A DNA stretch of 64,000 nucleotides from positions 124,001 to 188,000 of the forward strand of contig NC_089433.1 of NCBI RefSeq assembly GCF_026210795.1, read 5' to 3'. Shown in pieces: positions 4,446 to 58,625 of the stretch; positions within the stretch are counted from its first letter, which is position 1; every line of letters starts with the position of its first letter. Source of the DNA: Rhizophagus irregularis (Eukaryota). The notes beneath the pieces are model-generated. The model was not told the DNA's origin. It made no database searches and saw only the letters and a program-made list of their open reading frames with translations. The position numbers were made by a program, and so were the translations under genes.

Positions 4446-4869
4446 TTACGTATAGTATAATACATAAATTTTTGAAAATACGTAATTGACGGCTAATCTG
4501 ATTGATAATAAATAATTTTTTTTCAATTTTTTGACTTTTAACAGACCGTTTTATTGAAAAAAAAAATAAAATAATTTTTTTTCAATAAAAATTTTTTTTT
4601 TGGCCTTTACTGTTATATTTTTTTTAACAACTGGCCATTTTATTAAAAAAAAATATTTGGTTTAGAATGTTATTAATATTCCTTTTTATTATTTTTCTTT
4701 AAAAGCAACTTCTTAAATCTAAAATTTATTATTTTAGATACTAATATCTTGGAAAAATATGAGTTAAGAGAAAAGTACAGTCAATTTTTTTGGAAATATT
4801 ACCATACTAATATTCCTTTTACTTTTTTCTTAGGAACTTGGAATTCAGACTAGAACTCCAATGCTCACT

Positions 4870-5231
4870 CACAGGTCGAAATTAGTTAAATAAATGCACA
4901 TCAGCTATCAATAGGTTATCAATCGGCTATCAATAGGCTACCCTATTGGTAGCCTATTGAACTTGCGCCATAATCCGTCACCAATCGGGCAGGCTGATTG
5001 ATAACCTATTGATAACCTATTAATACCTTATTGATAACCAATTTGATAAAAATACCAATAGGATACTAATAGGTTATCAATAAGTTATTAATTGGCTAAC
5101 AATCAGCCTGCCCGATTGGTGACGGATTATGGCGCAAGTTCAATAGGCTACCAATAGGGTAGCCTATTGATAGCCGATTGATAACCTATTGATAACCTAT
5201 TGATACCCTATTTAACTAATTTCGACCTGTG
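4870..5231. mobile_element. Fold-back MITE with CACAGGTCGAAA termini, 362 bp
   Basis: CACAGGTCGAAATTAGTTAAATA ... TATTTAACTAATTTCGACCTGTG; 3-bp TSD ACT; same terminal 12 bp as 75-589. Confidence 0.93.
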
Positions 5232-6665
5232 ACTGTAAGTAAAGAATTTTTTAGCTTTATTTTGTTTATTTTAGAAGTATTATTAACATTTCTATTGTTT
5301 TTTCTATTAGAAATAGTTTTTAGATTAAAACTAAACTGAAATTTTTAGTAAGTTGAGAATAGGGTAGAATTTTTTTTGTTTTATATGTGAAAATAGTATT
5401 AATATTTTTTTTCTTTAGAAATAGGATCTTCTTTTAGAAATGATTTTATAAATTATATTCTAAGTTTTTGTTATAATTTATAAAAAAATAATGAACAATC
5501 TTTTTGTTTTAGTGTTAATACTTGAATTATCAAATCATTAAATATAGTAGTATAAATAAATACGTCAGTACAAATTAATTTATGCAATTTGGCATTATGC
5601 TAGCAATTGAAAATCAATTATACTGGAAGTATATTTTAAATACAACTAATTAAATTAAAAAAAAGGCCATGATTTTATTTTTTTAATATACAAATGTCAT
5701 AAAAAAAATTTGCTTATTCTAATATAAATTATAAAGTCAGAAGTCAACTTTGCGTATTGATCTTAGTAAAAATATTTGCTTATTTTAAGGCAAAATTTTG
5801 CCGATCATCTCTGACTTTTATATGTATTTTTCGGGGTTCTGGAATATCTACTCTATCATTATCTTGAATCTCTTTCCCTATACTATCTATACTATCTTCA
5901 ATTATATCACTCAAAGTACCAACAAATGCATCCAAGTTCAAAAAATTATCAATATCTAATTCTTTCTCTTCGCCAATTACTATTTCCTTCTCATTATTGT
6001 AATAATCAAGTAGGTCATCTTCCAATTCAAGAAGGTCTTGGTCGGGATTCAAATGTGCATCAGTTAATATTTGATGAATTTCTTCAGTGGATTTTTCTGT
6101 ACCATAATATGGCAATTCTTTTTTCACATTTGCATGGTAATAGGCTAAAAGTTTATACATATTTTCAACTTTATTTAAGCCTAAACGTGTCCTTCTTTTA
6201 CCATATATCCAACCAAGACTTGACCATACTCACTCACATCCAGCTGCATGAGGTGTGATGGAAAAGAGTTTAAGCGCCAGTTGAACTAGGTAATCTTTAT
6301 CTTTAGGAAAGCTATCTTCGATAGAAAACCACAAAGTATAGGAAGTTTCAGTATCACCTATTTCAATATCAAAAGGCTTTTCTCATTTACGATATTGTTT
6401 CATTTGGTGCATTAATTCTTTATGTTCAGCATTTTTTTTTCCCATTTTCATAAAAATTTCATCCGCTACCATTAATAAATCTCTAAAAAGTCCTCGTGCC
6501 CAGTAAATCATCAGCAAGTTTTAAACAGGCGTATAAAGTGTTGAAAAATGCCATGTGTTGCTCAACGCCAAAAAACGTAGGGAAACGAACCTTTTATCAA
6601 TCAACGCCACCTAAAAATGTTGAAAACCGCGTAAAACAACACCAATTTAAATGTAAAACAACATA

Positions 6666-9684: not shown

Positions 9685-10851
9685 TGATAAAAAGATGACT
9701 GACAAGAGAGAATTAATTGATTATTAGAATGTGAGAATGAGAAAAAAAAAATATTAGAATGTGAGAAAAAAAAGTAATCATTTTTTAACTCTTATGTGTG
9801 ATGATCTACTTGATTTACCTATACGTAAGTATACTCAAGTATACTAATGATTAGTATACTTACTTAGTGTCCAGTGTAACTTGTAACAAACATAATTAAT
9901 GTAATTACTTAATAGATGTTACTTTAAGACTAAATTGCGGCGCAATGTCACGTGTTACAACGATTCATTCGAATTTCAACGCCCACATCGCAAAAAAGTA
10001 TTAGTCATGTCACGTGTTGCAATGACAAATCTGATTCATTTCTTCACTTCGAATTTCAACGCCCACATTGCAAAAAAGTATTAGTCGTTGTTCATCACAT
10101 TGCAAAAGTATTAATCGTTGTTCATCCTTACGAAATCATGTGATGTTTCAAATTGAATTTCTGCTGATGAAGTAGACGTGATGAGTAACTATGGACAGCT
10201 AGAAATGAAAGCGTTTAACGATGAACAGAACAACTAGTAGTAGAGGTGAGCAATAAAGAGAAGGAAGAGATTAAATCTGAAGAAGAGAGAAAATTTTAAC
10301 GGGAAATTGTAAATATCGAGGATGTAAATTTTAACAAGTGAAATTTCCAACAAAATATAATTACCTTCATCCAACGCTCAGTTTTGCTTTTGGACGTTCC
10401 AGTTTACTGTATTAATTAATCCTTTATTTTATTCATCGTAAAAGTACTAATAATAATAATTATGCGTTAATTTCTATGATGTTTGTTGTGTTTGTTGACA
10501 CCTTAAATGTGAATATTTTCATCAGTATCATTACGCAGTTAACTGATGGTATCATTTGATATCCTCACCTAAATATTTAAACGACACGATGATTGATTAA
10601 TTTAATATATGTATTTCTTGATTGATCGTAATCAGTAACACTAACTGTTAACATTGTGTAAACTGTGCAATACGTCAAGCAATACTGTATTGTTAAGTAT
10701 TGTTAATATTATTGAGGCACATAGTCAATTTATTGTTAAACAAGTTAATATAATAAATCAACATGTAAAAAACCTTAATGTTTTTATATAAATTAACCTA
10801 CTTTACTAGCGTCAAATAAAAAACTTATTCACCATAAATCAACTTCAAAAA

Positions 10852-13800
10852 ATGGCTATATACTCGTGTCCACATTGTGAAAGAGTCTTCAGTCGTCGTG
10901 CTTCTCTACGAAATCATGTGAAAACTCACGATGATATAATTGATAAAGTTCTTAGAGAAATTGCTGAAGAAGTAGAACATGAACAAGAGGAAGTGGGTGA
11001 CGATGAACGACTTGAGGAGGCGAGCTACGAAGAGGAAGAGGAAGAGAGGGGGAGTACTAATAATGATGAAGTACAAGAGGAGGTGAGCTACAAAGAAGAA
11101 AGTGAAGATAATGATGAAGTACTAGAGGATGTGAACTACGAAGAAGAAAGGGAAGTTAATGATGAAGTACTAGAGGATGTGAACTACGAAGGGGAAGAGA
11201 AGACGAAGGGGAAGAAGAAGAGGAAGGGAGCAATAATGATGAACAACTAGAAGAGGTGAGCTATGAAGAGGAAGAGGAAGAGGAAGAAGAGGAAGAGGAG
11301 GTGAGAAATCAACGTTAAATGAAATTAAAATAATTTATACTTTTGTGTGCGTCTATATATATCTATATATAGAAAGCGATCGACATATTTATCAAGTATT
11401 TATTGTCTATTAACATCCATATATAGGAAGTGATTGATGAATCAAGAGACATTGAAATCGAATATTCGCTAATTGACATTGAACCAATCCTAACCTTCGA
11501 ATCTCTTGATATTAGAGTAACAAATATACCAGAATTTCCAAGCGAAGAGTTTGGAAATTTTATGGAGTTGCTTACTAAATGGAATTTGTCTGATGCATGT
11601 GGTAACGATATACTTAAATTTTCAAAAAAGATTTGCCGCGATAATGTAATTTTACCTACGTCAGTAAAAAAGGTCGTCAATTGTTGGATCAAATTGTTGT
11701 ACCACATATTTCTTTTAAAAAAGCGCCTATCATGACATATAAACAAGAAACGTATTATCTTCATTATCGTCCGATTTTTGACATTATAAAGGAATTGTTG
11801 AGCAATAAGGATATATTTGCCCATTGTACTTTTAAATTTACACTATTAAATCATAACAGAGAAAGAATATATAACGAACAATATAATGGACAATGGTAGG
11901 AAAGAGTCCAAAAATCACTTCCTAATGGTGCAAATGTATTGTCAGTAATTTTATATTCGGATACTATGACACGTGATCACTTAGGAAAGACCAGCGAACA
12001 TCCCATTTATTTGACACTTGGTAATATAGTTAGTTGGCGCAGAAATAGGCCTGATGCCAAAATACTTTTGGGTTATCTGCCGATCCTAAAGGCAAAAGAT
12101 ATTTCACAAAAGAGGTCAAAGAGTTTTCGGTTAGCCAAGCGAGTCCTTTATCAATATGCTTTAAATATATTGACACGATCGTTACTTGACTATAATGGTG
12201 AATTTGATCTTCAAACAGATAATGGTATAAAGTGGTGTTTTCCGTTTATTTCCGTAATGTTAGGAGATTTACCAGAAAATGCTGCAGTAACTTTAACATT
12301 TAACTTTGTTAATTGTCACCACCCTTGTCATAAATGTTTGGTGGAGTGTGAGAAGCTGAACAATGTGGAGTTAACAAACGATCGAATTATCTTAAGAACA
12401 CCAGAAAATATGAGATGTCTTGTTGAACAAAATTCTGCACAACAATATTCTCTACACGATATGAAAAACATCTTTTGGAATTATCCGTACGTATCACGTG
12501 ATTTTTAAAGAAAGTGTGTTTATTTTGCCAATTATTTTCTAATATATTTACTCAAAAATAAATGATAGTCAGTTAAATATTTATTTGTCAACAATACCTG
12601 ACCGAATGCATCATCTCGACTTGGGATTGTTTAATTATCAAGTGATCTACACAAGGGTGTTGTTAAAAGAATTGTGTGGTCAAATAGCGGTTGACGAACT
12701 TGATAATCGTTTGGCTAAAATCCCACGATTTTCTGGCCTTAAGATATTCAAGAATGGCCTGGAAAATATTAAGCAGTTTACTGCCAATGAATTTCGAAAT
12801 ATGATGAAGATATTTGTTTTCGTCATAGAAGGAATAGTCATAAACCACCACAAATCATCGATAAGTACATCCCGAGCCAAATGATCTGATGAAGCATTGG
12901 TTGACGTGTATTATTATTGGAATAAGATGTATTTATACAGCCGACGGGAGTATTTTAAGGAATCAGAGCTGGTGATTTTTGATGTATGATAGCGAGATAA
13001 TATGATGATTAGTTTTTTATGAATATTGCAATTAACATGATTATATTTTATTTTGTTTAAAGAATCTAATCAAACAATGGGCAAAGAGCTTTATAAAACT
13101 ATTTAAAGAATATTCTCTATCAGAACTTCGATTACCAAAGCTGCATAATTGGTGCTATCATATCATTAAGACAATTAGAGAATATGGAGCAATCAACGGG
13201 TTTACGACAGAAACGTATGAATTTTTACATAAAGAAGCTGTAAAAATACCCTATAGGTCTGGTAATAAGCGTGACCCAACAGATCAAATGATTAAATCAG
13301 TTGGTATTACAGCTAGTACGATATTCAATGCATTATCACAAATTAATATTGTTATATTATATATAAGTTTACCGAAAAGGGATAATTAAATACTTACTTC
13401 AGCGTACAAATGTTAATAGACGCAAACAAAAAACTCTAATGAATAGTTTGTTAGGCACATTTAATTTGCAAGATTTTGATGCGTTTTTCAATAATTACCG
13501 ATCAAACAATAGCTTGGCCCGTGAAGCTCTAACGGCTCTAGAATATTTTCTGGAATTGTTAAACGAGTTTTTAGATTTATGTGAAGGGTTAACCGATAAT
13601 GAAACTATTAATATTAGTTGGTATAGTTATGCTAATATTTCTTCAAGCGGGGATTACATTAGAGCAAAAAGCTTGTATTATAACGAACCATCATTTAGTG
13701 ATGTGTCAATCAGCATGAGCAAGGAAGAGTCTGAAGATTATAATACAGCCGAAGGTGGTGCATGTTTTGGCAAGGTACAGAATTTTATTTAATATTGAAC

Positions 13801-15002: not shown

Positions 15003-15827
15003 CCCTATAAAAAGTATTTATATTTAAAATATAATTAAAAACTTTTTAAAATATATTTAAAATATACTTAAAATATATTTAATTTAAAAATTGCGAAATA
15101 CTTATAATATACTTAAAATGTATTTAAAATTATCTTAAAATATATTTCTAATATATTTAATTTTTGCCCAAATACTTAAAATATACTTAAATTATATTTA
15201 AATTAAAATTTAAGTATATTAGGCCAAAGAAATAAAATTATTCGTTTCTTATGAAAAAAAATTGCTAAATTTGACCCGGCCGCCCGGAAAAAAAATTTAT
15301 TTTCAAAAAAAAATTTAGCCGATTCCTAAAAGATGATTGGTTGATTTAATAAATTTTTTGCCCGGGTTACCGGGTGGAAAAAAAAATTATTTTTTTATGA
15401 TTATGATTGGTCAAAACCAAAATCACATGACCAAATAAAATAAATTTTTTTATCTTTTCGCAACATTTACATGACCCGCCCGGTCATGAGAAACAAATAA
15501 ATTTATTTACTTGGCCTTATAGATATATTTTTTACATACTTAAAATATTCTTATAATATATTTCATAATATATTTTAAGTATATTTTAAGTATGTAAAAA
15601 ATATACTTATAATAATCTTATAATATACTTAAATTTTAATTTAAATATAATTTAAATATATTTTAAGTATATGGGCAAAAATTAAATATATTAGACATAT
15701 ATTTTAAGATAATTTTAAGTATATTTTAGATATATTAAAAATATATTATAAGTATTTTGCAATTTTTAAATTAAGTATATTTTAAATATATTTTAAGTAT
15801 ATTTTAAGTATAATACTTTTTATAGGG
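15003..15827. mobile_element. AT-rich fold-back element with CCCTATAAAAAG termini
   Basis: CCCTATAAAAAGTAT ... ATACTTTTTATAGGG; long inverted arms of ATATACTTAAAAT/ATTTTAAGTATAT repeats; symmetry extends ~12 bp further out, so exact ends are uncertain; lies just beyond the hAT intron donor near 15861. Confidence 0.8.
15222..15516. mobile_element. PIF/Harbinger-like MITE, 295 bp, nested in the fold-back element
   Basis: TIRs GGCCAAAGAAATAAAATTATTCGTTTCTTATGA / GGCCAAGTAAATAAATTTATTTGTTTCTCATGA; 3-bp TSD TTA (15219-15221, 15517-15519). Confidence 0.85.
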
Positions 15828-20283: not shown

Positions 20284-21409
20284 AATATAAAATATTAGTG
20301 AAAAAAAATATAGAAAAATTTGATTAAGAAAAATAAGCGAAAAAAAAGTAAAATAAATATGTTTACTGAATTAAAGTTCTTTATATTAATTTTGAAACTG
20401 GACATTCTCATCTCGCGAGATCACACATTCACACAGTACATAATGTATGTATTCCAATTTTATACTGTAATCAATTCTAAATTCTAATAACCGAGTTCTC
20501 ATATTTATATCGTGCTCCATCTCCTATTTTTTGATCTAATGTCTCATTTTTGAAGAATGTTATATAACAATAGAATTTATTATCTATTGTCAAAATATAA
20601 AATGACTATTATAAGATAAAAATAAATGTTATGAATTTCTGTTTAAAAAAATGAATGATGAAACAATAATGTTAAACTTTCTTTTACGATTAAGTACAGC
20701 CTTTTACAGCCATAATTGCTATATTATTCTGACACTGTATGACATATCAACTCGCATGGTCAAAGAAAAAATCAAAATTTAATGATATCGGTATTATTTA
20801 TGCTTCACAATTAAACATAAGTAAGGGTAGTTAATATTATAATATTAATATAATTGGCATGTATAAATGTAGTTAGATTATTATATCTAGCGAATTTAAT
20901 CGTTTTGAAACTCGTCAAACTCGAGTTGAATTTGAGTTTGAATTTGCGTTGATGAAATTGTTAATTTTTGTTAGATTTGACTTGATTAAATATGATTTAA
21001 TTTTACAATTAGAAAAAATAAATTAAACGATTAAAATTGTAAATAAAAAATAGTATAATAAATTCATAATATCTAGTGAAATAAATTAGTTTGTGTGAAC
21101 TAAGGTTGCCTGCCGAAACCTATTTGGCTTAATGCCGAAAGGAGAAACTCCACATATAATGCCATAACTGCGAAACTGCGAAATTGCGAAACTGCCAAAA
21201 CTTGCGAAACTGCCAAAACTTGCGAAACTGCCAAAATTTGCGAAACCTTTATAATGAGTTTATCCATAGTTTCGGCATAATAAATAATAATATTTTATAT
21301 GAATTTCGGCATAATTACAGCATTCCTAATATTTTATTTTTAATTTCAGTTTCTAATAAATTTACATGTAAATAAACAACGTTATAATATTCTAATAATA
21401 ATATTATTA

Positions 21410-22570
21410 TTGAAAAAATCCTAACAAATGTAACAGTCATGATTTTTTTTCTGGAAATTCTACATAAAAAAAAATAAATTAATTAAATTTATCAAAAAAA
21501 AAAAATAACGAAACCCTTCTCCCGGTACTTTACCTTGATTACAAAAGTCTGGTTATATTTTTTCATCTGACAATCCTACAAAAAGAAAAAAAAATCAATT
21601 AAATTTATTAAAAAAAAATGATGAAAACACCTTCTCTGACCCTCCCTCACCTTAATTTTAAGAGTCTGGTCATGTTTTTCATAAATTATGAAAAAATTAA
21701 CGAAAAACTTTCACTGGTCCTCCTTTACCTTAATTTATAAATCTGTACATGTTTTTCGTCCAGCAATACTACAAATAAGGTTGCTTGTCTAAACCTTTTC
21801 AAAATCCTACGATTAGTTTCGTCAAAATTTTACTATAGATTTATTATAGTTTTGGCAGAGTTTTGGCAGTTTCGGCATTTATAATAAGTTTCGGCAGTTT
21901 CGCTTTTCTCCAAAGTTTCGCCAGTTTTTTAATATAACTTTAATATAGTTTTGGCAGAATTTCGCTTTTCGGCGAAACGCCATCTTGCCTAAACCCCTAG
22001 GTTTCGGCAAGCAACCTTAACTACAAAAAGAAAAATAAACAAGAAATTTATTAAATAAAAAAACAACGAAAAACCTTCCTCAGCCCTCTCCTTTACCTAA
22101 ATCCCAAAGTCCGGTCATGTTTTTCATCCAGAAACACTACAAAAAAGAAAAAAATAAATAAGTTAAATTTATTAAATAAAAAAACAACGAAAAACCTTTC
22201 TTTAGCCCCTCTTTTACCTAAATTCTAAAGTCCGGTCATATTTTTCGTCCGGCAACACTACAAAAAAGAAAAAAATAAATTAGTTAAATTTATTAAAATA
22301 AAAAACAACGAAACCCTTTCCCTCAACCCTTTCTTACCTCATTTCCAAAGTCCGGTCATATTTTTCGTCTGGCAACCTTACAATAAAGAAAAAATAAATA
22401 AATTTATTAAAATGGACCCTTTTCCGGTCCTTTCTTACTTCAAAAAGTCTGGTCGTGCTTTTTGTCTGGCAATCCTACAAAACGAAAAATAAACTATTAC
22501 ATTTTTTAAATAAAAACTTCCTGTCCGGACCCTCCTTAGTTCTTTACCTCATAATTTTTGTCCGAAAACC
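21410..22570 (-). repeat. ~120-bp tandem array; unit = ~80-nt intron + ~40-nt exon on the minus strand
   Basis: About 8 units; example exon 22218-22257 and intron 22258-22337 (GTAAGA...ACTAAT...TTTTGTAG on minus). Confidence 0.85.
21776..22019 (+). mobile_element. hAT-type MITE (TAAGGTTGC family), 244 bp
   Basis: TAAGGTTGCTTG ... CAAGCAACCTTA; perfect 8-bp TSD ACTACAAA. Confidence 0.95.
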
Positions 22571-23288
22571 TCAATACAAGAAAAAAGAGATCATCAGATG
22601 ATTTGTACTATGCAATCTGTCTGATAATTTAACTTTCCTGTGCCGAATTGGCGTAAATCATTGAGAATTCGATAAATTTGGCAAATTTTGGCAATTACGT
22701 CTATATAAATTCAATATGGCTGAATACGGCATTGCGTCAAAAAAAAAATCCATGCCGAAATTAATCATAATTCATAATGTTGCCGAAACTAATATATGTA
22801 TATCATATGATGTACTATGCCAAAATAGTTACGGCAGCTTAGACAGTTTTGGCAGGTTTCAGCAGTTATGGCATTTCAATATTTTAGACCAATTTTGCGA
22901 AACTAGTTTTAGCAGTTTCACATACGCCATCCCGCTGAAACCTCCTAGTTTTGGCAAGCAACCTTAGTGTGAACTCAAATTGAACTCGAGTTGAACTCAT
23001 ATTTGACACGATTGAATTCGTTCGATATTTAGATAATAACTTATTATTTGTAATTGTCTGATATAAATATATTGCAAGGGCATCTTAATCTTATTACCTG
23101 CATATATTATTTTTAATTTTTAAATAAAAAAGAAATTTATTTTTGCAGATATCTTAAACATATTACTTGCATATATTATTTTGAATGTTAACTAAAATAA
23201 ACAGAATTTCAAACTAGAGAAAATATTTATAAGGGAAGTATACGTCTTTTTTTTTAAAAAAATAATCATTTCTCAACAAATTTTAATC

Positions 23289-24136: not shown

Positions 24137-24433
24137 AGGACTCCGGATATCTAATATAAAGGTCATAATGGACTTTTGGCCAAAAACACCCCTTTTTGCT
24201 GAAACTCAAAAAATCGTTTTTTGTAAATATCTCAGCATCCAGTAATTCAATTTTAATGAACTTTTTTTTATTTTGTAGCCCTCATTTAGCTCTACAATTT
24301 AAAAAAAAGTTCATCAAAATTGGACCACTGGATGCCGAGATATTTACAAAAAACGATTTTTTGAGCCCCTGAAAAATGGGCCAATCTGCCGAAAGTGTGA
24401 CTTATGACCTGTTTTGGAGATATCCGGGGTCCT
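24137..24433. mobile_element. MITE with AGGAC(T/C)CCGGATATCT termini and central long hairpin, 297 bp
   Basis: TIRs AGGACTCCGGATATCTAATATAAAGGTCATAA / AGGACCCCGGATATCTCCAAAACAGGTCATAA, related to the 4003-5840 termini; internal inverted repeat 24206-24365; no TSD visible. Confidence 0.8.
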
Positions 24434-25015
24434 CATCATGCATTTACTATTATTGTATTAGTGACAATCATATGATCATTTTCGTTTAATCAAACACTTG
24501 GTAATCATAACCTTTTAGCTAAATATGAGTTAAGCATGATAAAACTAGTTGTATTTATACAAAAATGCATCATTGTGTTTAAACTTACACAGTAGTTAAA
24601 AAATTTTTCCCATCGCAATTTTTTTTTTTATTAAATTTTTTTTTTTTTTTGAATTATAGCTGAAGAGCAAGAACAAGAGGATAATTATAACTCTTTTCCA
24701 TATGAATCCTTTATAGAGGATCAAATTTTTATTGATTATGAGGATGAGGAATATAAAGAAAGATATAGTGAAATAACAATAGAAATGACTGAAAAAGGAA
24801 CTGAAATTACTGAAACTGAAACTGAAACTTCTAGTATTAGATCTAAAGAATTAAGACAAGCTCGAGTTTGGAAACATTTTGAAAAAAAGACAATTGAAAA
24901 AGATGATAAACAAACTGAAACTTATATTTTATGTCATATTTGTGAAGGCCATTTTTCTGCAAACAATTCTACTACAACTCTTGAACGTCATTTAAAAGCT
25001 AAACATTTTGATGTA

Positions 25016-28000
25016 CACTAGTCGAATGATGGAATATCGGTAATAAATCAGTTACCTGATAATCATCTGATAATCCACATATCGTATTCTGATATTTCCA
25101 GATTAGTAATTCTGATATGGTACCGATTAATGGAAGAGATAGTTATATTTAAATTACATATAAGTTACATATCGATTTATAAATATTATGAAAATATCAC
25201 ATAAATATCATACTCATATTGGTATCCATATACCTCAATAATACCTGTATGATACTTGTATGATCATTATATGTATTATATACTGATAGATCAATAATTT
25301 TATTCTGAAATTTGTATAAATTGTATTTATTATATTTATTGCAATATTCTATCTAATGCTATCTATCGTATAATCTAATGTCCTATTTAATGTCCTATCT
25401 ATCGTATAATTTAATGTCTAAAATTTGAAATTTAAAATCTACAAAAAGAAAAAGAGATGATTAGTATTAATTTAAAGAAATTAAAGTTTTGGGAATAATT
25501 TTGAACTTACCGAAATTTTATTATACATCCAGAACTAATCACCTAAAAAAAAGAAAAAAAAATAAAACGTAAGTTAAGTTTCATTAAAAAGATTCAAAAG
25601 AAGCCTGTTGAAAACTCACCAAAATTTCATGCCTAGGATGAATATCTTGAAGTTTTGGAACTCACCCGATCTAAAGCCTGGAAACTAAAGCCAATATTTA
25701 CAAATAATTTAATAAATTTTTTTAAAAAAAATAAAGTTTTGTAAAACTTCTGAAACTCACCAATCTAATACCCCAAGGATCAAAGCCGATATCTACAAAT
25801 AAAAGAAAAAAATATTAATTAAATTTTTTAAAAAAATTGAAGTTTCAAAGTAAAACGAAACTTCAAAATCCACCTATCCAACATCTAAGAATTCAAAACT
25901 GATATTTATAAAATAAAAGAAAAAAATATTAAATTAATTTTAAAGAAAAAGATAAAGTTTCGTAAAATTTCAAAACTCATCAATCCAAAGAATCAAGGCC
26001 GATATCTACAAATAAAAAAAAAATATTAATTAAATTTTTAAAAAAAATTAAAAACAAAACTTCAAAACTTATCTACCCAAAGAATCGAAGCCAATATCTA
26101 CAAATAAGAGAAAAAATGTTAAATAAATTTAAAAAAATAAAGAAGTGAAACTTCACTTCATAACTCACCTATCCAAAGCCCTTATATATGCCTATACGAA
26201 AAAAATAATTTTTTCTTAACTTACCAGTCCGAAATAGCGTCTAAAAAAGGTTCAGAACCTGCAAAAAAAATAAGAAAGAAAGTTAGTATACGTTTATATG
26301 CCTTCTATTTAAAAAAAATTTTTTTCTTAACTTACCAGTCCAAAATGGCGTTTAAAAAAGGTCTGGAATATACAAAAAAAAAATAAAAAAGAAGGTTAGT
26401 ATACGCCTATACGCCTTCTATTTAAAAAAATAATTTTTTCTTAACTTACCAGTTCAAAATGGCGTCTAAAAAAGGTTCAGAACCTGCAAAAAAAATAAGA
26501 AAGAAGGTTAGTATACACCTATATACCATCTATTTAAAAAAAAATTTTTTCTTAACTTACCAGTCTAAAATGGCGTTTAAAAAAGGTCTGGAATATACAA
26601 AAAAAAAAAAAAAGGTTAGTATACGCCTATACGCCTTCTATTTAAAAAAATAATTTTTTCTTAACTTACCAGTCTGAAATGGCGTCTAAAAAGGGTTCAG
26701 AACCTACAAAAAAAATAAGAAAGAAGGTTAGTATACGCCTATATGCCTTCTATTTAAAAAAAAATTTTTTCTTAACTTACCAGTCCAAAATGGCGTTTAA
26801 AAAAGGTCTGGAATATACAAAAAAAAAATAAAAAAGAAGGTTAGTATATACCTATATGCCTTCTATTTAAAAAAATAATTTTTTCTTAACTTACCAGTCT
26901 GAAATGGCATCTAAAAAAAGTCCAGAACCTACAAAAAAAAAATAAAAAAGAAGGTTAGTATACATCTATACGCCTTCTATTTAAATAAAATAATTTTTTA
27001 TTTAACTTACAGTCCAAATGGCATCTAAAAAAGGTCCAGAACCTACAAAAAAAAATAAGAAAGAAGGTTAGTATACGCCTATACGCCTTCTATTTAAAAA
27101 AAAAATTTTTTAAATTTACAGTCTGAAATGATGTCTAAAGAAGGTCTAGAACCTATAAAAGAAGAAAGTAGAAGGTTAGTAGCACCTATACGCCTTCTAT
27201 TTAAAAAAAAAATTTTTTAAACTTACCGGTCTGAATGGCGTTCAAAAAAGGTCTGGAACCTACAAAAAGAAAAAGTAGAAGGTTAGTATATGCCTATACA
27301 CCTTCTATTTAAAAAAAAAAATTTTTTTAAAACTTACAGCGTATAAAAAAAGTCCAGAATCTACAAAAAGAAGAAAGTAAAAGGTTAGTATGCCTATACA
27401 CCTTCTATTTAAAAAAAAAATTTTAAAACTTACCAGTCTGAATGGCATTTAAAAGAGGACCAGAAGCACTCCGGAAGTTATAAAAAAAGAATAAAGAAAA
27501 GGTTCTATTTATTAATATATATATATACATATATTTAACTTACTGGTCTGAACCTAAAAAAAAAGAGGGAAGGAGTATGCATGTGACTCCATCACTCCAT
27601 AAAAAAAAATTTCTGAAGTTACTGGAAATAAAGTTAGTTTATTATTATTATAAGCCGATCATTATTATATAGAAAATACTAAATTTAATATCAGCATAGT
27701 ATATTATATGATATACATATTTCCGATCAGTTCCTAATTAATTTACTGATCGTTGATAATCTTTTTTTTAAAAAAAATTATTTACCTGTACTTCTTTTTT
27801 TTTGTAGGACATCAGAATATTTTTTTTTATAGGACAACTTTTTGGATTTCTTCTTTTTGTAAGATGTCAAATACTGGACTTGAATAAACTGTACAAGTAA
27901 ATAAAGTGAGTGTTATATGTGCATGTAAAAATAAAGCTCAATTCATTAAAGAAACAATACTAATGTTTCTTTTTCTAATTTTTTAGGATGCTGAGCTTCT

Positions 28001-28820
28001 TAGATTTCTTGTCTTTTGTAGGGATGTGAACCAGACAGGTGAATGGGATGGACGCATAGGAATAAAAAATATATTTATATTCCTTGGACTTCTTGGGTGA
28101 ACCTGAACTTGAATTTTAAGTATGTAAGTTAGAGGGAACTGAAGGGAAGGTTTTTTTTTATTAATATATTATATATTACTAACATTTACTCTAATTTTTT
28201 TTCTTTAGTCTACCAAACATTCTTGGTTGAACCCAGACTTGAAGATAGTATGGGTGGGAGTTTTACTTAATTGCTTTAAAGAAATGAATGTATTAATATT
28301 TCTTTTTTTACTTTGGGATGTGAACTTTAACGTATATCATTGATTAAGTCCTTTATCAATAAAAAATCAGTTTATTACATACAATAAAATAAAAATATTA
28401 CAATAAATAATTTTACAATAAATTTCAACTACATATAGATTTATTGGTAACCGTTTGAAATTAAAAAAATTATTATACAGTAAAAAGATTGGAATGCTAA
28501 AACTATGGCAAAACTCTAAAATTTTAACACTTCAAATACGATTATCTTAAAAAATTATTTGTACAATAATATAAATATCATATAAATATTATATTATTAT
28601 CATATAAAAATCAATAATTTATCAGATATCCAATAAGAACCAGATAACTTATTGATATGAGTTTAAAAAAATTATTTATAATCATGTGAATATCACTGGC
28701 CTATCGGTTACTAATATATGTTCAATTTTTAAAATGATCTGCTAGTGGCATATCGGTTTATGATATTTTTCTGATTTTATCTGATATGTCACAACTCGAT
28801 ACCTCATCATTCGACCAGTA
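25016..28820. mobile_element. Non-autonomous CACTA element, 3805 bp, with two divergent intron/micro-exon arrays
   Basis: CACTAGTCGAATGATG ... CATCATTCGACCAGT(A); 3-bp TSD GTA; removal restores KHFDV|YKDLGQ in the hAT frame; no transposase inside. Confidence 0.92.
25430..27560 (-). repeat. Tandem array of ~20 intron + micro-exon units (~110-120 bp); homogeneous part 26210-27440
   Basis: Plus strand shows recurring ACTTAC/ACTCAC (donor), CTAC/CTGC/CTAA + poly-A (acceptor, polyY) and GTTAGT/ATTAAT (branch); example exon 26225-26258, intron 26259-26335. Confidence 0.9.
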
Positions 28821-29427
28821 GTATATAAAGACTTAGGTCAAGTTAAATCTAATGTAAAACCCTGGACAGTTGATATACAACAAGAAAAGCATAATCTTTT
28901 TGTTAATTGGATTATCACAGACTAGCAATCATTTACCATTGTTGAAAATCAAAGTTTTAAAAAATTTATAGCATCTATTCAACCAAAATACAAAATTCCA
29001 TCTCAACACACAATAAAAGATATGATAATGAAAAAGTTTGAAAATGCACAAATTCAAATAAAAAACTACTTTCAACTTTCAACTTCCAAAATTTCGTTAA
29101 CAATGGATATGTGGATAACAATTAGTTCATTAGGTATTTTGGCAGTAACAATTCATTTTATAAAAGATAATTGGCAGTTTGATCACTTTGTATCAGATGT
29201 ATTGTATATTCCTTTATCATACACAGCTTTAGCAATTAAAGATTCTATTATCAAAATTGTTTCAGAATTAAATATTGCAGATCGATTAATTGGAATTACT
29301 AGTGACAATGAAGCAAAGATGTTAGTTCTGACTTGACTGATTAAAGAAGATCTTAATTTATCAGAATTTCGCCACTATCGCTGTGCAGCACATATTTTAA
29401 ACCTTGCTGTTGAAGCAGCATTTAATA

Positions 29428-29675
29428 TAAGGTTGCTTGTCTAAACCTCTTCAAAATCCTACGATTAGTTTCGTTAAAATTTTACTATAGATAGATTTAT
29501 TATAGTTTCGGCAGAGTTTTGGCAGTTTCGGCATTTATAATGAGTTTCGGCAGTTTCACCTTTCTCCAAAGTTTTGCCAGTTTTTTAATATAACTTTAAC
29601 ATAGTTTTGGCAGAATTTCGCTTTTTGGCAAAACGCCATCTTGCCTAAACCCCTAGGTTTTGGCAAACAACCTTA
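29428..29675 (+). mobile_element. hAT-type MITE (TAAGGTTGC family), 248 bp
   Basis: Near-identical to 21776-22019; perfect 8-bp TSD ATTTAATA; inserted just after the CxxH motif of the transposase. Confidence 0.95.
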
Positions 29676-30010
29676 ATTTAATACAAATATAGTTCCTAAT
29701 TGTGCCAAAAAGTTGCGTATATTTATTAGTACAGTAAAAAATTCACCTAAACAAATGGATAAGTTAAAGGAGTTTTTTCAAGTTGAAAAAATTAAATTTA
29801 AAGTACTACTTCTAGATTGTACTATAAGATGAAACTATACATTCTATATGATAGATCGAGCATTAGAAATTAAACCTCTTTTGGCTTATTTAGTATCAAA
29901 TCTTACATCATTATCAAATAATTGGCCAAATGAAGAAGAATGGAATATACTTACTATTTTAGCAGACTTATTGGCTCCTTTTGCATCAGTAATAAGAGTG
30001 ATATCTGCTT

Positions 30011-30166
30011 TATACATGCCACCCAAATTATTTTGGACTGCCGTAATTATAAGTAAAATCCCAAATTCAATTATGGCATCCCAAATTATTTTGGCACTTT
30101 ACATAGTAAATTATATATAAACTGAATGAATTATGGCATCCCAAAATAATTTGGGCAGCATGTATA
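30011..30166. mobile_element. Small MITE, 156 bp, 8-bp TSD (hAT-like)
   Basis: TIRs TATACATGCCACCCAAATTATTTTGG / TATACATGCTGCCCAAATTATTTTGG; perfect TSD ATCTGCTT. Confidence 0.92.
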
Positions 30167-33100
30167 ATCTGCTTCTAGTTATCCAACTATTGGTGAAGTT
30201 AAATTACTTTTTGAAGGTATTAGAATGCATTTAAATCAATCTCGAGGTGAAAATTTTATTTTACAAGACCAAGTAGATGAAATGAACCATGTTTTTACAA
30301 ATTATTTTAATGAAATAAGTGAGGCATTACATATTTCAGCCTTTTTTGATCCCCATTATAAAAAATTAGCATATGGTGATATCACTGATATGTCTCAAAA
30401 TAATATTTTTGAACCAATTCGTAGAGTAATTGCCAATTATTAATTATCAATCTTTTTTTTTTATATTGTTTTTTGCATAATTTTTTTTTTTTTTAAAAAA
30501 AAATTTCTTCATCTCCAGAAAAACATTATAAGCAAGTTGTATATTAGATATTTGAATTCTATTTTTACCAATTTTTTTGTAGTATATTTTCTTTTTAAAT
30601 ACTTATTAAATATATTGTATTTATTTTCTAGATATTTTAATAAAAATTTACTGCTTTCTGTAAGAAGAAATATTTTAAAAAATAAATAAAGATAAAGCTA
30701 ATTAATTATAAAAAAAAAATTAAAAACAAAAAATTTATTTATTATTATACTGTATAATTTTTATTATTTAGCAATTATAATATTTATTATTTTGAAAAAA
30801 ATATATTAGTATATTAAAATATAAATTATAATGCAGCAATTCTTACTAGCATTATGCAATTTTCAAATATCTAATTCTTTAAAGGTTATACTATATTAAA
30901 ATTTCCTTTATATTATGTATAGTGCTGATCTGAATTAAAATCAGTGTAACCCATAATGTAACCGTTGTAAGTCTACAATCAGTATTTGTTATATCATAAA
31001 AACTATATATAATGGTAAAATTATTAATTGTGAAATGGGATATGGAAAATTTATTGATATAGACATATAATATTGGTACATAGAATATATAATATTAATA
31101 TATTTTATATATAGTTCAATTTTTTGCAATAAAGTTAATTTATATTTAAAATTGTGGTTATATTAATATGATATGAAAATACAATATTATAATATGTGTA
31201 ACATTATGAACATTTCAAAAATAATACAAATACATTTAACATTATATAAATGACGTGAAATGTTTATATCGTACAGGTAGTACAACTACAATAATAATAT
31301 TTAATATTTTTGAAATTCGGTCAAGTAACTGACACTAATAATGTTGATAGTTCGGAAGTATTCTCAATAATTATATGTGGAATGGACCAAAATTAATACT
31401 GGGAAATTTTCGAAAATCAAAAAAAATCAGATACTAACGCGTTTTAAAAGTATCACAAAATGGTTTACCTAAATTGATTGTTTCATAATAAAATAAATGA
31501 TCATGATTTTAATGATTTTGGTGATTCCACATTAAACTTTCCAATTTTGTAACGCGATTTACAATTTTTTTTTTTCAAACGACATAATTCCGAAAGTTCT
31601 CCGAAATCACCAACTAAATGAATGTAAATAATTATTACATTAAGCTTTAATAAATGAAGCAATTTTAAAAATTTTTTTATATCACTAAAACAGGGTTTCT
31701 TTTAAGAAATTTCTCAAATAAAAAAAAAAGGGGAACTAAACTTTATTTGATTAGACAGGATCAAAATGCCAAGAAATTTTTTTAATAGATCCTCCATCAG
31801 TGTTTATGATCATATTATTCTAAATTTGACAAGCTGTATACGCGTGAAAAAAATACAGTATAAAAAAAATATATATAATATATTAGATATATTATAATTG
31901 TATTCATTTATTCATTCATTCATTATAAATTAAAATTCGGAATCAAAATAACCGAATATATGAATATTTATTTAGAAGATAACTTTATATGCATAATTCA
32001 TATAAACATTTTTAAAATGGTGAAATATTTTATGTAATTTCTGGAGATTAAACTCCGTTATTCTAGAATGTGATAATAACTTTATTATTAAATGTTTGAA
32101 AAAAAAAAAATTTTTTTTTTTATTATAAACCAAAGATTTATAAAGAATAAAGATTATATAGAAGGATGATAGAGGCGCAGAAATCATAGAGAATAATATA
32201 AATAAGGAATTGTGGCGTTGATATTTTTTTGTCGTTCATGTGACGCAACTTAAGGATGAGACGCGCTACACTTGTTTTATATAATATTGATAATATACAT
32301 AATATAACGTTTTCGCGATTTGATAAAGAATAACAATTCTAATTTCCTTTTTGAATAAATTTATGAATACAATTTCATTAATGAATACTTTCAAAAAAGA
32401 TTAGTCTCAAACTTTAACTTTGTAAAAGAACAATATCAAAGAAATTTTCGTAGATAAATATTTATTTTAACATAACATAAAGTAAAAAAGTTAATATCAT
32501 GTAAAAAAAAAAAATTTTTTTTTTTATCTTTTTCTTTTAGAAGAATGATCCAATTTCTATATCGAAAAGTCAAGCATATATGTGATATTTACAAAAAGTA
32601 AAGCATAACTAACTGTTTTTTCTACGTAGAATAGAACAAAAATAATTTAATAACTGCATCAATGGAAAAAATCTTCCCGGGTTACGGCTTTATTTTAAGC
32701 ATTTAATATTCATGGAACATATTCATCGAATTAACTGAAATTCTAAAAATAATGGATTGTCAATTAATGACGATCAATGATCAGATGACTATTTTTATCC
32801 GTTGTCATGCATAACAAATTTTTCGAAAGAACATCACAAATTTTTTTTTTTAAAAAAATTGTTTCTATAAAGAAGCATTTTTGTTTTTGTCACATTTGAA
32901 TATTTTTCCCATGAAAGACTTTTTCTTCTTTTTTTTTCTATTCATTTGGAAAATCTTAAAATTCTAATCAAAGGGATTGTTTTTTTCTTTAAAGGTCATA
33001 AGACTAAATAAGGTATTGATTTATTCGGTTTCTTTTACCAGAAAATTATCGCACATGCTATTAATATGTTATAGATTATTGATATTCAAAACAAATATAA

Positions 33101-43421: not shown

Positions 43422-44456
43422 CTAAAGTAAATAATGTTGGTTATTATTGATCGCGTTTTGGTTATCCTCGTACGAAATAAATTGTTGTGGATATTCGGGA
43501 TATCCATTATTTAAATTAAAATTGTTATAATTATCAAAATATATCAAAAGATCTAATGGATTATTAAAAGGTGATGGTAATTCATTAGAAGCTTCTGATA
43601 CACATTGTGGAAATAAATCTGGTGATTCGACAAATTCCGGCATTGGTGACGATGAAGATGATGAATATGATGATAATGAAGAAGACCCGGGTGAAAGCAA
43701 TTGAGGTGAAGCTAATTGTGGGGGAGATGGAAGTAATTGTGGTGAAAGTATTTGTGGTGAAAGTATTTGTGGTGTAATTTTTTGTTCTGTACCATTATTA
43801 TTATTATTATTATTATTGTTATTTGAATTTATCAAATTTGTTGAGTTTTCTATTGAATCATTATTATCATCATTATTCGTCGTATCTCCTAGAAAATTGG
43901 TTACACTAAAAGTATTTAACATTGAACTATCAACAACTACACTATTCTCGCTAAAAACGTGCGATTTAAATATTTGTCTTTTCTTTGGCTGAAATCTATA
44001 ACCGGGATATAATTCTTGATGAAGTATTACTGCTTGCAATGCGAGGATATCATAGCGTTCTTTAACTTCCGCGGAGATGTTGGTCCATAATTGTTTGCTT
44101 TGACGACATATGTCTGGCATTGCGTATCTGTAACCTAACTTTCTTAGTTCAAGCATATAACAATTCTTGAACAGAAAGTAGGAGTTCGGCGGTCTCGGAG
44201 GTACCACTTGCTTGCGAGGCTTCCTTCTTGTACTAATCAATTCAGTTACAGTGTATTTTGGATTATAAACACAATCTAAATCTAAATTTTCTGGAATACA
44301 TTTATGATTTTTTGTAGAAGAAACTGTTGAAGAAGTTGAAGAAACCGAAGAAGTTGGTAATGAAGAAGGACGATAGACGGAGTTGAGACCATTTTGTTGT
44401 TTGCTAAGTTCTTCAATGGCAACTTGAAAGGCTTTGGATTTTCCCATTTTTGTCAT
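43422..44456 (-). CDS. MATA_HMG-box transcription factor, intronless, 344 aa
   Basis: HMG box PPRPPNSYFLFKN...ICRQSKQLW....AEVKERYDILA....HQELYPGYRFQPKKR; first ATG at 44456 (MTKMGK) after an A-rich leader; Asn/Ser/Pro-rich C-terminus; uninterrupted ORF. Confidence 0.93.
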   Translation of the reverse strand: MTKMGKSKAFQVAIEELSKQQNGLNSVYRPSSLPTSSVSSTSSTVSSTKNHKCIPENLDLDCVYNPKYTVTELISTRRKPRKQVVPPRPPNSYFLFKNCYMLELRKLGYRYAMPDICRQSKQLWTNISAEVKERYDILALQAVILHQELYPGYRFQPKKRQIFKSHVFSENSVVVDSSMLNTFSVTNFLGDTTNNDDNNDSIENSTNLINSNNNNNNNNNNGTEQKITPQILSPQILSPQLLPSPPQLASPQLLSPGSSSLSSYSSSSSSPMPEFVESPDLFPQCVSEASNELPSPFNNPLDLLIYFDNYNNFNLNNGYPEYPQQFISYEDNQNAINNNQHYLL

Positions 44457-47400
44457 TTTTTTTTTTATTTTTTTTTGATTGAACGAATTTAACAAAGTAT
44501 AAACGAGTAAAAGAAGAAAAAAAAATATCGAGTTTATAAACGAACTAAAGCTAAAAATTTTTATATTTTAACGAGTAAAAAAAAAATTTATCGAGTTTAT
44601 AAACGAACTAATTTGAAAATTTTGTATTTGGTATTTTTTTTTTCCTTGCAACAAAAATTTCATCCTTATTTATATTTAAAATTTCTGATAATAATGTATG
44701 TATTCAATTGTGAAACATAATTATTAAATTTGGTATAGTGTATGATGATTATTGTGATTATTGTGATTATTAAAGATTATATATATACTTTATAATTTAT
44801 TTATTGTCCCTTTGTCCTGAGTTAAAATACTAAAAAATTTATCGGAATGATTTTCTGACTCAGTTCCTAATACTGTATAAATTAAGAAGTTTTAATTTAA
44901 TTTCATTTATGCAAATTTAATATGCAAATAAAATATACAAAATAATATACAATAGAATAAGAATTGATTATTTAATTTATATGATAATCGCAAAAAAAAA
45001 AAATAAAAAAATAAAAAAAAAAATATATACATTTATTTTTTTTTCAAAAGAGTATCACAAGATGTGTTTTTTCACTTCTTCACGGAAAAACAACAAAAAT
45101 TCGTGTGAAACTGTTTCTAAATTTATTTTTTTTTTTATCTGATAAGAATTTTGCTTTTTACTTTCATTTATTTTATTTTATTTTATTTTTTTTCTTTAGG
45201 TAAAGATAAAAGAGATTTCTTTTTTCGTTGAAAACCGGAAAATTGGCGTCTTGGGATCATGTTTGATAAAAAAAAAAAGTAGAAAAGAAAGAATTTAAAG
45301 AATTTACTAAGAAAACTTGCACACATTTACACATCATATGCATTAATGTGTACATATTCGGAATAGCCGTGATTTAAAATAAAATCTTTTATAAAAGTTT
45401 ATAAACACGTAAGATTATAAAATATTGATATTATATTTATTTTGTACGTGATTAAGTGATTTATATTACTGGTAAACTGAAACGATACCGTATCCAAAGT
45501 ACCCATTAAATTTCTATCGGTTTTAAAGGTCCGTATTACACTTATATTAAGTATATACCATATTTTAAGTATAAGGAACCAAAATCGGTTATCCTTGTCC
45601 GTAAGTATAATGAATATATAATATATATTTATTTTTAATTTCATATAATTTTCAAGTTTTAAATTTCCATATTAGTTAATAAGATAATTAGAACTAATAA
45701 TATTCGAGACTGAAATGCACATCTAATACTTTAGTAAATTTATAAGTAAAAAGGTAAAAAGAATTTTTAAAAAATTATATTTAGAATTTATAAGAATCAA
45801 AATTGGACATAAAATTAACCTAATTAAAAAAAATCATTAAATTTCAACGTGAAATTGACTTTTTTCCAAAAATAGAATTTCATCAATGATATTCTGTTTA
45901 AAAAATTTACTAGTTTGCCTTTTTTGATATCAAGAAATATAAGTAAATTTAGTTCGATATCACATGATCGACACTAAGAACAATTTATTTCATTGTTTCA
46001 AATAAAATAGTTCAAACATTTTCGTCATTCTACAAAAAAAACGAAACCAATTTCACATGATATATTATGATATATTAAATGGCGCATGCGCAGTAAATCA
46101 AGGGACCAGTTCAATATATTATTATAATATTTTTACTTGTTAGAAAACTTTAATTTGTACATTATTATTACATGTAATCATTATTATTAAAAATTCTTGA
46201 AGCAGACGCCAATCCCTCATGTAATGAAATGATCTTCTTTACCATATTAATCGATTGTACAAACAAGACGCATGGTCTAATTAAATGATGCATTTATACC
46301 GGAATCCTCATTTCCGACATGCGTTTTAAAATGATTTACTTATTTTACTTATTTACCGAATTTATCAATTTTTTTAAACCGAAACTGTATTTTTTGACTA
46401 ATGTTTGACTATTAATATTATTGAATTTTTTTTTTTTTAACCAAAGGGATTCTCTTATTTCGGAATAATGATTGCGTTTCATAAAAATTTTTTTTTCATT
46501 AATAAAGAAAAACATATAACAAATAAAATATAAATATGTAATGTATGTCATAAATTTTTTCATTATTTCAAAGAGATTTCATCCTCACTTCGGAATCAAA
46601 AGTACGTCATGCAAAGTGACCATAAAACCATCTTATAATAGCAATAATGTCGTAATAATTAATGCGCATGATTATGATAGTACAGAAGAATGATTATTTC
46701 GACAATTTATTATTGTTGAAGAAAGATGATACAAGTAGGTCAGATGAAAGGGTCCATTATGTGATCACGCACATGATCACATGAGTAATCATTGATATAT
46801 AGATAATAAATATGTTGTACATAACCCACATAACCCACATAACCCAGCATGACCCAACATAACTCACATAACTCGACGGTTAATATTTTTTATATGCAAC
46901 ACAGTACGATAATATTAATAAGTTGAAATTTAGCCAGACAAATTATTTATTGCAATTTATAGTAATTAATAAAAAAGCGTTGAAGCAACTTTATTTTTTA
47001 TAATTTCTTTATTAAGAAGTTTGAAGAATAGTAATATTACTCCATTTAGAACATCATAATTTATACAATCCTTTCTTTTTATTATTATTATTATATTTAT
47101 TATCCAATAAAAAATTATTATTTTACTATTACTAATACGCAATGCAATGGCCGCTGATTGAAATGCTGCAATGAACCTGCAAATGATGGTTGACTTCTCT
47201 TTAGAATTGGATGACAAAAATAATCAAATGATATTTTTTGACCAAATATTTCATAATTTCTAACATAGAAGAAAAAGAAGAAAGAAAAAAAAAAATATGA
47301 AAGGGAATACCAGGAATAGGAGGTAGTGAGGAAGATGACAAATATAAACATAAATAATAATAGTAGGTTTTTCCGCCAAAGAAAAAAAAATTTTTTTTTT

Positions 47401-50446: not shown

Positions 50447-51860
50447 ATCTTTTGTGACGTGCGATTTTTCGTAGCATCATTTCGATATTTCGATTGAAAT
50501 CTTACCATGTTATATACTGTATGTACGGTAGTTATTGCACTGTGTACGAGTTAAACCACTGTTTTCTTTTGAATGCTTTTAAATTTTCTACATTATTAGA
50601 TAAATTTCCGTAAACTTGATTTCAACCGGGATTCGAATTATTATTAAATCTTCGTGAGTTTACTATGGTTATTTGAAAGAACATAAGATTATCGAAATTG
50701 AAAGAAATATTCCGAAATTACATAATATCGATCGTCAATCAGATTTTTAATAAACAATTTGATAGTTAAGGTAATAATTTTTAAAATTAGTTATAATAAA
50801 GACAAAGAAAATTTTTTGCTCTTTGTTATTCTTTGTTAAAAAAATTTTTTTAATCTTATATTTTAGTAAAATACAAATTCAATTGTACTTTGGAATGAAT
50901 TCAATTATATTTTGAAATCATTTAGTCTCAAATTGTGTAAGATTTTGAAATTGTGTAAAGTTTTGATCTTTTTTGTGTCAAAATTTCATCCCTCTTGATA
51001 AATTACTTTTTTTTCGAAAAATTTCTTTTTCATTATTCAAAGAATCCAGGATTTCTACCTATTAAATGCATGAATTGTATATTAGTAATCTTTAATTTCA
51101 ATTTTTTTTTTTGTAGTGATTTGCTATCTTTTGTGATTGTAAAACTTTTATCTTTTGTGACGTGCGGTTTTTCGTAGCATCATTTCGATATTTCGATTGA
51201 AATCTTACCATGTTATATACTGTATGTACGGTAGTTATTGCACTGTGTACGAGTTAAACCACTGTTTTCTTTTGAATGCTTTTAAATTTTCTACATTATT
51301 AGATAAATTTCCGTAAACTTGATTTCAACCGAGATTCGAATTATTATTAAATCTTCGTGAGTTTACTATGGTTATTTGAAAGAACATAAGATTATCGAAA
51401 TTGAAAGAAATATTCCGAAATTACATAATATCGATCGTCAATCAGATTTTTAATAAACAATTTGATAGTTAAGGTAATAATTTTTAAAATTAGTTATAAT
51501 AAAGACAAAGAAAATTTTTTGGTCTTTGTTATTCTTTGTTAAAAAAATTTTTTTAATCTTATATTTTAGTAAAATACAAATTCAATTGTACTTTGGAATG
51601 AATTCAATTATATTTTGAAATCATTTAGTCTCAAATTGTGTAAGATTTTGAAATTGTGTAAAGGTTTGATCTTTTGTGTCAAAATTTCATCCCCCTTGAT
51701 AACTTTTTGAAAATTACTTTTTTTTCGAAAAATTTCTTTTTCATTATTCAAAGAATCCAGGATTTCTACCTATTAAATGCATGAATTGTATATTAGTAAT
51801 CTTTTAATTTCAATTTTTTTTTTTTGTAGTGATTTGCTATCTTTTGTGATTGTAAAACTT
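50447..51860. repeat. Direct tandem duplication of ~703 bp of non-coding DNA
   Basis: 50447-51149 is repeated at 51150-~51860 with only a few substitutions and small indels. Confidence 0.95.
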
Positions 51861-54772: not shown

Positions 54773-55089
54773 AAGTCACACAGCATACACAACATATTAA
54801 ACGTTGAATGTTACTTTACATAGTATATCTGATATGCAAAAGTAATAAAGTTGATTGAATTTCTCAGTGTAATATGTTCTTTTCACATGATAATTTATTA
54901 ATTTCTTAATCTCGGAAATCTTTGTTAAAACAAGTATAACAAGTTTTATTACAGGATTTATGTGCACTTCATTGTCAAATTTATATATATATAATACCTA
55001 TTTTGTAACCAAATCCATTTGCTTCGCTTTTTAACTCTCGTTTTTTATTTTATTTTTTTCTTTTTTTTTCTGTTTTCAAACTTTAAAAA

Positions 55090-58420: not shown

Positions 58421-58625
58421 TTTATAAAAAAAAAAGTTATAAAAGTTAGCAATATGTGTAAATTTCTTTTTATTGGAAATAAAATAATATACAAATGATA
58501 ACACTTTTTTTGTTCTATTTCAGTCCTTACTTCATTTATTTTTTATCCGTATCGTCTTGTTGTTTCTTTTTACTTCTATCCATTTCATTTAGTCTTTGTA
58601 AAAGTTGATTATTAGTTACTCTTTA

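Follow-up and report, generated by a model that had tools for sequence, protein, structure and literature searches.

Tandem duplication of exon-intron units with very short exons is known from one-repeat-per-exon genes and from schistosome micro-exon genes. In those genes the exon lengths are divisible by three and the product is a protein, unlike the arrays of Rhizophagus irregularis described here. Tandem arrays inside a transposon bounded by terminal inverted repeats (TIRs) are known from Jozin, a CACTA/CMC-EnSpm element of Chenopodium; an intron plus micro-exon unit is not described in the available part of that report (PMC8978399), whereas the unit in R. irregularis is a complete intron with its micro-exon. 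Spliced non-coding RNA from fungal transposons has been reported for Blumeria hordei, where, in the part of the study available, transposon-antisense lncRNAs have 2.3 exons on average, fewer than 1.9% have more than five, and the validated ones lie in LTR retrotransposons or intergenic regions and have long-read support (PMC10648671). The main array of R. irregularis likewise runs opposite to the transposase, judged by the orientation of a related metagenome locus, but it comprises about 19 tandem-duplicated introns and its splicing is barely evidenced. SmTRC1 of Schistosoma and maize Spm are CACTA-type as well and give several spliced transcripts, truncated copies included; their splicing yields proteins, and the accessible sections describe no tandem intron-exon array (PMC1636069).

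Several host pathways link introns to silencing. In Cryptococcus stalled spliceosomes trigger siRNA production (SCANR, as cited in PMC6643885), in S. pombe cryptic introns recruit silencing through Pir2/ARS2 (PMC7229227), and for Aquarius/EMB-4 introns are described as a barrier to nuclear RNAi (PMC5554785), all according to the portions of these papers at hand. Such routes could let transposon introns promote or hinder silencing; they are pathways of other species, and their relevance to the R. irregularis element would be by analogy.

Among titles and the beginnings of abstracts, mostly outside subscription papers, no published description of an array of introns and micro-exons was found. 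Neither "intron" nor "splic" occurs in the main text of the R. irregularis transposon papers PMC11075540 and PMC8647823, whose supplementary repeat libraries may list the element, and the array is unmentioned in the available part of the assembly paper (PMC10234402). The layout is real and apparently undescribed, built of known parts and repeated in two elements.

Intron signals in the window

The window, i.e., the whole stretch of DNA that was analysed, comprises 64,000 nt of R. irregularis (NC_089433.1, positions 124,001 to 188,000). A strict intron scan gave 24 calls in the window, of which 15 lie on the minus strand of 27560-25430 (13 distinct donors), compared with 0-5 calls in 20 shuffled windows. 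All 13 donors come with the full set of GT donor, branch site, polypyrimidine tract, YAG acceptor and host-typical length. With a looser micro-exon scan 17 calls were obtained, 12 in the same region, three in a second array and two elsewhere (0-3 in 30 shuffles). The initial annotation had described units of GTAAGT, ACTAAC, a polypyrimidine tract and YAG at about 111-bp spacing, and these are present far beyond chance. Its statement that the signals are of U2 type and of the size of gene introns in the window also agrees with our inspection by eye of three gene introns (72, 80 and 94 nt), which resemble the array introns in length and signals. The introns of the following gene served as host reference.

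55087-55900, plus strand: RING-IBR gene with two introns

The G+C content of the window is mostly 19-34% and reaches 39%, and transposon remains are abundant, including Plavaka and a BED-finger transposase. The Plavaka transposase at 10810-13800 (plus strand) is broken and has acidic repeats as well as a C2H2 finger at its N-terminus; an HMG-box gene lies at 43422-44567 (minus strand). Several long palindromes, at 71-593, 4906-5194, 15030-15812 and 24190-24380, are non-autonomous elements that contain repeats of 11 bp; matches of the last one to miRNA families are below the cut-off. At 5235-5418 (plus strand), adjoining a palindromic element at 4864-5232, an exon of 37 nt lies between two intron-like units in tandem. 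Further repeats are a 703-bp tandem duplication at 50447-51860, with 99% across the 300 nt listed, and, at 58622-59674, a 279-bp repeat in 3.8 copies.

A CACTA-like element inserted in a hAT pseudogene

The main array lies inside a transposon that itself interrupts a transposase pseudogene.

25016-28820: non-autonomous CACTA/CMC-like element, 3805 bp, no open reading frame of 100 aa or more inside
25016-25045, plus strand: left TIR, first bases CACTA
28791-28820, minus strand: right TIR, first bases TACTG, common to metagenome locus L001
24653-25015, plus strand: BED zinc finger part of the interrupted hAT-type transposase pseudogene (PF02892, E 4e-08), which resumes from 28824

Between the two ends of the element, CACTAGTCGAATGATG at 25016 and the end at 28820, 14 of 16 terminal bases pair. 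Both flanks carry the 3-bp target site duplication GTA, and the empty site gives a continuous hAT frame from the BED finger onward. The window alone also allows a 2-bp TA duplication; the end of L001 favours 3 bp. The part downstream of 28824 is without a Pfam match and is provisionally taken to be hAT by its motifs. This pseudogene is also broken by a MITE at 29428-29676 and, near 30007-30170, by one or more further insertions.

The search with the TIR motif returned one metagenome locus, L001 (a single contig), and none in the prokaryote genomes searched. Its right end matches that of the element with 71% over 183 nt (E 7e-17). The C-terminal ORF of L001 has relatives in Rhizophagus named "transposase domain-containing", and the names of its relatives span Rhizophagus and Funneliformis. 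DUF4218 was detected in three of six of these relatives, below the cut-off; the L001 ORF itself has no Pfam match, and the catalytic domain falls outside the contig. A second ORF of L001 (1290-2130, minus strand), with a Cys-rich C-terminus and no Pfam match, lies upstream of the transposase-like ORF and is probably another inserted element. Since the 3' end of the transposase-like ORF faces the shared TIR, the main array is antisense to the transposase of the family.

TIRs, GTA duplication, restored frame and L001 together make the assignment as CACTA-like, which the initial annotation had proposed, well founded. CACTA/CMC-EnSpm elements are defined by TIRs that begin with CACTA and end with TAGTG (available text of PMC4158355). 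The left end reads CACTA and the right end TACTG, likewise in L001, so that by its termini the element appears to agree in part with CACTA/CMC-EnSpm in the strict sense.

Two unrelated repeat families in one element

Within the element the intron-bearing sequence resolves into several parts.

26225-27543, minus strand: young array of 12 units, each 96-116 bp long (an intron of 73-87 nt and an exon of 23-34 nt), first unit degenerate
25666-26168, minus strand: old array of five units, each 92-113 bp long, whose exon of 25-32 nt is unrelated to the young exon
25439-25619, minus strand: two single intact introns (25619-25543, 77 nt; 25510-25439, 72 nt) flanking a unique 32-nt exon
25304-25438, minus strand: predicted last exon with AATAAA at 25340, 25331 and 25304, its 3' end placed from sequence
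27790-28300, plus strand: degenerate intron cluster facing the right TIR, with two strict calls (27906-27986 and 28124-28208)

The region had been read as one array of about 20 units; it actually holds 12 young units of about 111 bp, five unrelated older ones and two single introns. The ACTAAC-containing unit of about 111 bp is found in 11 copies at 27433-26225 plus the degenerate first unit (27543), and the mean pairwise identity of the 11 units is 85%. Intron 26335-26259 (77 nt) and the exon after it (26258-26225, 34 nt), two frames of which contain stops, are exactly as first described. A length of 34 nt is found in several exons and is not general, as the 11 young exons measure 23, 33, 33, 32, 34, 27, 34, 27, 34, 27 and 34 nt. 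In three of the 11 young acceptors TAG is changed to TAT, each time with a CAG 7 nt downstream, and this change is carried by a two-unit higher-order repeat of the young array. The 27-nt exons are thus the result of one acceptor change, copied three times, that leaves the CAG 7 nt on. The two 33-nt exons miss different bases relative to the 34-nt form.

The mean pairwise identity of the old array is 74%, and its exon resembles the young exon no better than chance (213 of 500 shuffles score as well). Donor, branch and acceptor had been claimed to persist in this older part, which is not the case: two of five donors read AT for GT, two of five acceptors read AA for AG, and the branch site is TTTAAC/ATTAAT-like instead of ACTAAC. 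Beyond the old array follow a truncated piece and then the two single intact introns. The cluster on the opposite strand (27790-28300) runs in the same direction as the transposase of the family, and its position suggests divergent transcription from the centre of the element.

Conservation of the splice signals

When all columns of 11 young units were compared, two of 15 signal columns were variable against 48 of 97 others (p=0.007). After filtering, which omits the two first units, homopolymer tracts and the last exon columns, the figures were 2/15 for signal and 26/56 for other columns (p=0.035, permutation stratified for base class); this test is small, the units are related, and an intron segment outside the signals varies almost as little. 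The splice signals of the young units thus seem to be modestly conserved. In the old array four of ten core G cells are mutated versus six of 35 other G cells (p=0.19). As the core G is hit no less than other G, there is no sign of constraint in the old array, and the expectation that splice signals would be more conserved than their neighbours is weakly supported, for the young units only.

RNA reads and coding capacity

RNA-seq reads of four runs with the same species label, whose strain may differ, were aligned to 24900-26100, i.e., the old part and the last exon; the sample comprised roughly one quarter to one third of every raw-read run. Among indexed sequencing runs, six of one organism, from three studies, contain 79-81% of the words of 25000-28900, and no RNA run is listed among those that contain them. 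The aligned records per run (336, 335, 298 and 21) are mostly short A/T-tract matches. Pile-ups at 25545, 25797-25835 and 26012-26047 were considered as expression and rejected as A/T-tract matches because 94-96% of the aligned reads in the three raw-read runs continue into unlike sequence. The last exon and last intron of the R. irregularis copy are covered to a depth of 1-2 in two runs, by reads that cross the intron unspliced. No GT-AG joint was found at the old-part introns of the element in the four runs over 24900-26100, and none of the 15 joints listed has splice-type ends.

Related, diverged copies of the element were also detected in the reads. Copies with intact acceptor and donor are present unspliced in three reads (X18) and one contig (X6). 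In one of the four runs, six reads (X19, 25796 to 25783) contain a 31-nt exon whose start and end are those of the window exon 26097-26073, with the upstream intron apparently retained; on the minus strand this exon abuts the first base of another old-type exon. This join, interpreted from a 17-letter entry, would fit splicing of a related copy, and a genomic deletion via 4-nt microhomology would look identical. For the proposal of a spliced RNA this candidate join in a related copy is weak support; the old part in the window has low depth and no GT-AG joints.

That the joined exons are non-coding, as the initial annotation stated, is clear. Joining the 11 young exons gives 338 nt with 6, 5 and 8 stops in the three frames, and the RNA of 765 nt that the intact sites predict contains no sense Met ORF longer than 30 aa. 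Translations read through the stops found no relatives among 427 and 729 candidates, and a comparison with 1.84 billion proteins gave one weak match, to an unrelated repeat ORF. A coding micro-exon or one-repeat-per-exon gene was rejected on exon lengths not divisible by three and the closed joined frame. Rfam gave no match within the array; its four matches elsewhere, all below the cut-off, lie on the palindrome 24197-24373 outside the element. Introns and unit fold no better than shuffles (z -0.02 to 0.80, four of four array stretches). A host gene for snoRNAs or mirtrons was excluded, with neither an Rfam match nor an unusual intron fold. The array motif was found at no locus in viral contigs and at none in prokaryote genomes. 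A generic micro-exon pattern occurs at 51 viral loci, none like the window and none with more than four intron calls per strand.

A second array in an element with hAT-type ends

A further array of the same design is located elsewhere in the window.

21100-22966: second element with hAT-type ends, TIR TAAGGTTGC, 8-bp target site duplication
21425-22547, minus strand: second intron and micro-exon array, with 8 units of about 120 bp each and exon lengths of 36-42 nt (40 nt in four of six)
21776-22020: MITE of the same family as the second element, inserted in its array at one acceptor, with 8-bp duplication; a further copy at 29428-29676

All eight donors have GT and six of seven acceptors AG at a mean identity of 67%; the donors were chosen with a motif, and this choice is biased towards intact sites. 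In the exons nine of 43 G cells are changed. The second array is unrelated to the other arrays (31-233 of 500 shuffles score as well) and is either cargo of the hAT-type family or a later insertion. The two MITE copies (21776-22020 and 29428-29676) share 95% over 186 nt and each have an 8-bp duplication.

Origin of the arrays

What is observed directly is the transposon with the site where it inserted, its two families of repeats, the mutated splice sites and the absence of coding capacity. In the explanation we prefer, and to which we give about an even chance, exon-intron units were repeatedly duplicated in tandem within a non-coding RNA of a CACTA-like transposon, transcribed weakly and spliced in part, and the present copy appears to be decaying. 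An internal promoter near 27600-27780 would produce outward transcripts on both strands, and unequal exchange or slippage would duplicate complete units. Such a unit, extending from one donor to the next, would still be spliceable after any number of copyings and has no reading frame to preserve. If spliceability is under weak purifying selection in transposing source copies, this could result in the modest conservation of the young units, while after insertion the splice-site G bases of the R. irregularis copy would be lost like any other G. The number of repeats would need no specific job. In favour of this explanation, two unrelated units were amplified successively in one element, together with the dimer repeat, the lost acceptor was itself copied three times, and the core G of the old array is mutated at least as often as other G. 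The last exon and intron have a depth of 1-2 and are unspliced, the reads of related copies are mostly unspliced with one candidate join, and introns and unit have neither an unusual fold nor an Rfam match. Both an array in a CACTA element (PMC8978399) and spliced lncRNAs of fungal transposons (PMC10648671) have precedents in the available parts of these papers. Against this explanation count the lower variability of the young signal columns (p=0.035), the second superfamily within 64 kb with an unrelated array of largely intact sites (donors 8/8, acceptors 6/7), and the three unrelated exon types of one design, which is more than one accident would lead us to expect. It also counts against it that the young array lies outside the RNA-aligned 24900-26100, although splicing would be most likely there.

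Part of this evidence would speak for splicing as the selected trait, in that many short introns load the RNA with spliceosomes and thereby shield it from nuclear RNAi or feed spliceosome-coupled siRNA production. Such selection, as camouflage or as siRNA trigger, is possible by analogy and would account for the recurrence of the arrays, and we consider it unlikely without dismissing it. Independent arrays in two superfamilies of one window, the conservation of the young signals (p=0.035), the CAG downstream wherever an acceptor is lost and the candidate exon-exon join in six reads are in line with it, as are the precedents for intron-linked control of silencing (available parts of PMC5554785, PMC6643885 and PMC7229227) and the 24-nt small RNAs from R. 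irregularis transposons (accessible text of PMC8647823). The sites of the old array decay without constraint, however, the listed joints lack splice-type ends (0/15), and the reads of related copies are mostly unspliced; moreover, shielding and siRNA feed are opposite effects, and neither is yet a specific prediction. The same lack of GT-AG joints in the old part and the unspliced related reads would suit a pure satellite, i.e., captured intron-bearing fragments amplified as DNA and never spliced as an array, for which the candidate join is explicable by a deletion through the 4-nt microhomology and satellite capture by CACTA elements is known (part of PMC8978399). This we hold to be improbable, as in three different arrays the unit is always exactly one intron and one micro-exon on a single strand, the arrays are colinear with two unique intact introns and a polyadenylation-like signal, and the other tandem repeats of the window have no such design. 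Least probable in our view is the remnant of a coding one-repeat-per-exon gene, or of the intron-rich leader of a second gene of the parent element after deletion of its coding part. Two young exons of 33 nt and three of 27 nt would fit, and a second ORF (PMC4158355) and several spliced transcripts (PMC1636069) are described for CACTA elements in the available parts of these sources. Yet the 33-nt exons miss different bases, the joined exons carry 6, 5 and 8 stops with a longest Met ORF of 30 aa, the read-through translations gave no relative among 427 and 729 candidates and a single weak, unrelated match among 1.84 billion proteins, and the exons of the second array are mostly 40 nt.

Implications

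It is a tentative and rather doubtful idea that at least two DNA transposon superfamilies of arbuscular mycorrhizal fungi independently evolved "splicing cassettes", kept for splicing, that set how host RNAi and methylation treat them. Even if the arrays are neutral, they would represent intron multiplication by tandem duplication in a non-coding RNA, and gene prediction is likely to mistake them for multi-exon orphan genes. If two arrays per 64 kb, as in this one window, are typical, the genome of an arbuscular mycorrhizal fungus would contain numerous transposon copies with different numbers of introns. Such copies would amount to a natural experiment on the effect of introns, which may protect the RNA of a transposon from silencing or expose it to silencing; until now this has been addressed with reporters in worms and yeasts.
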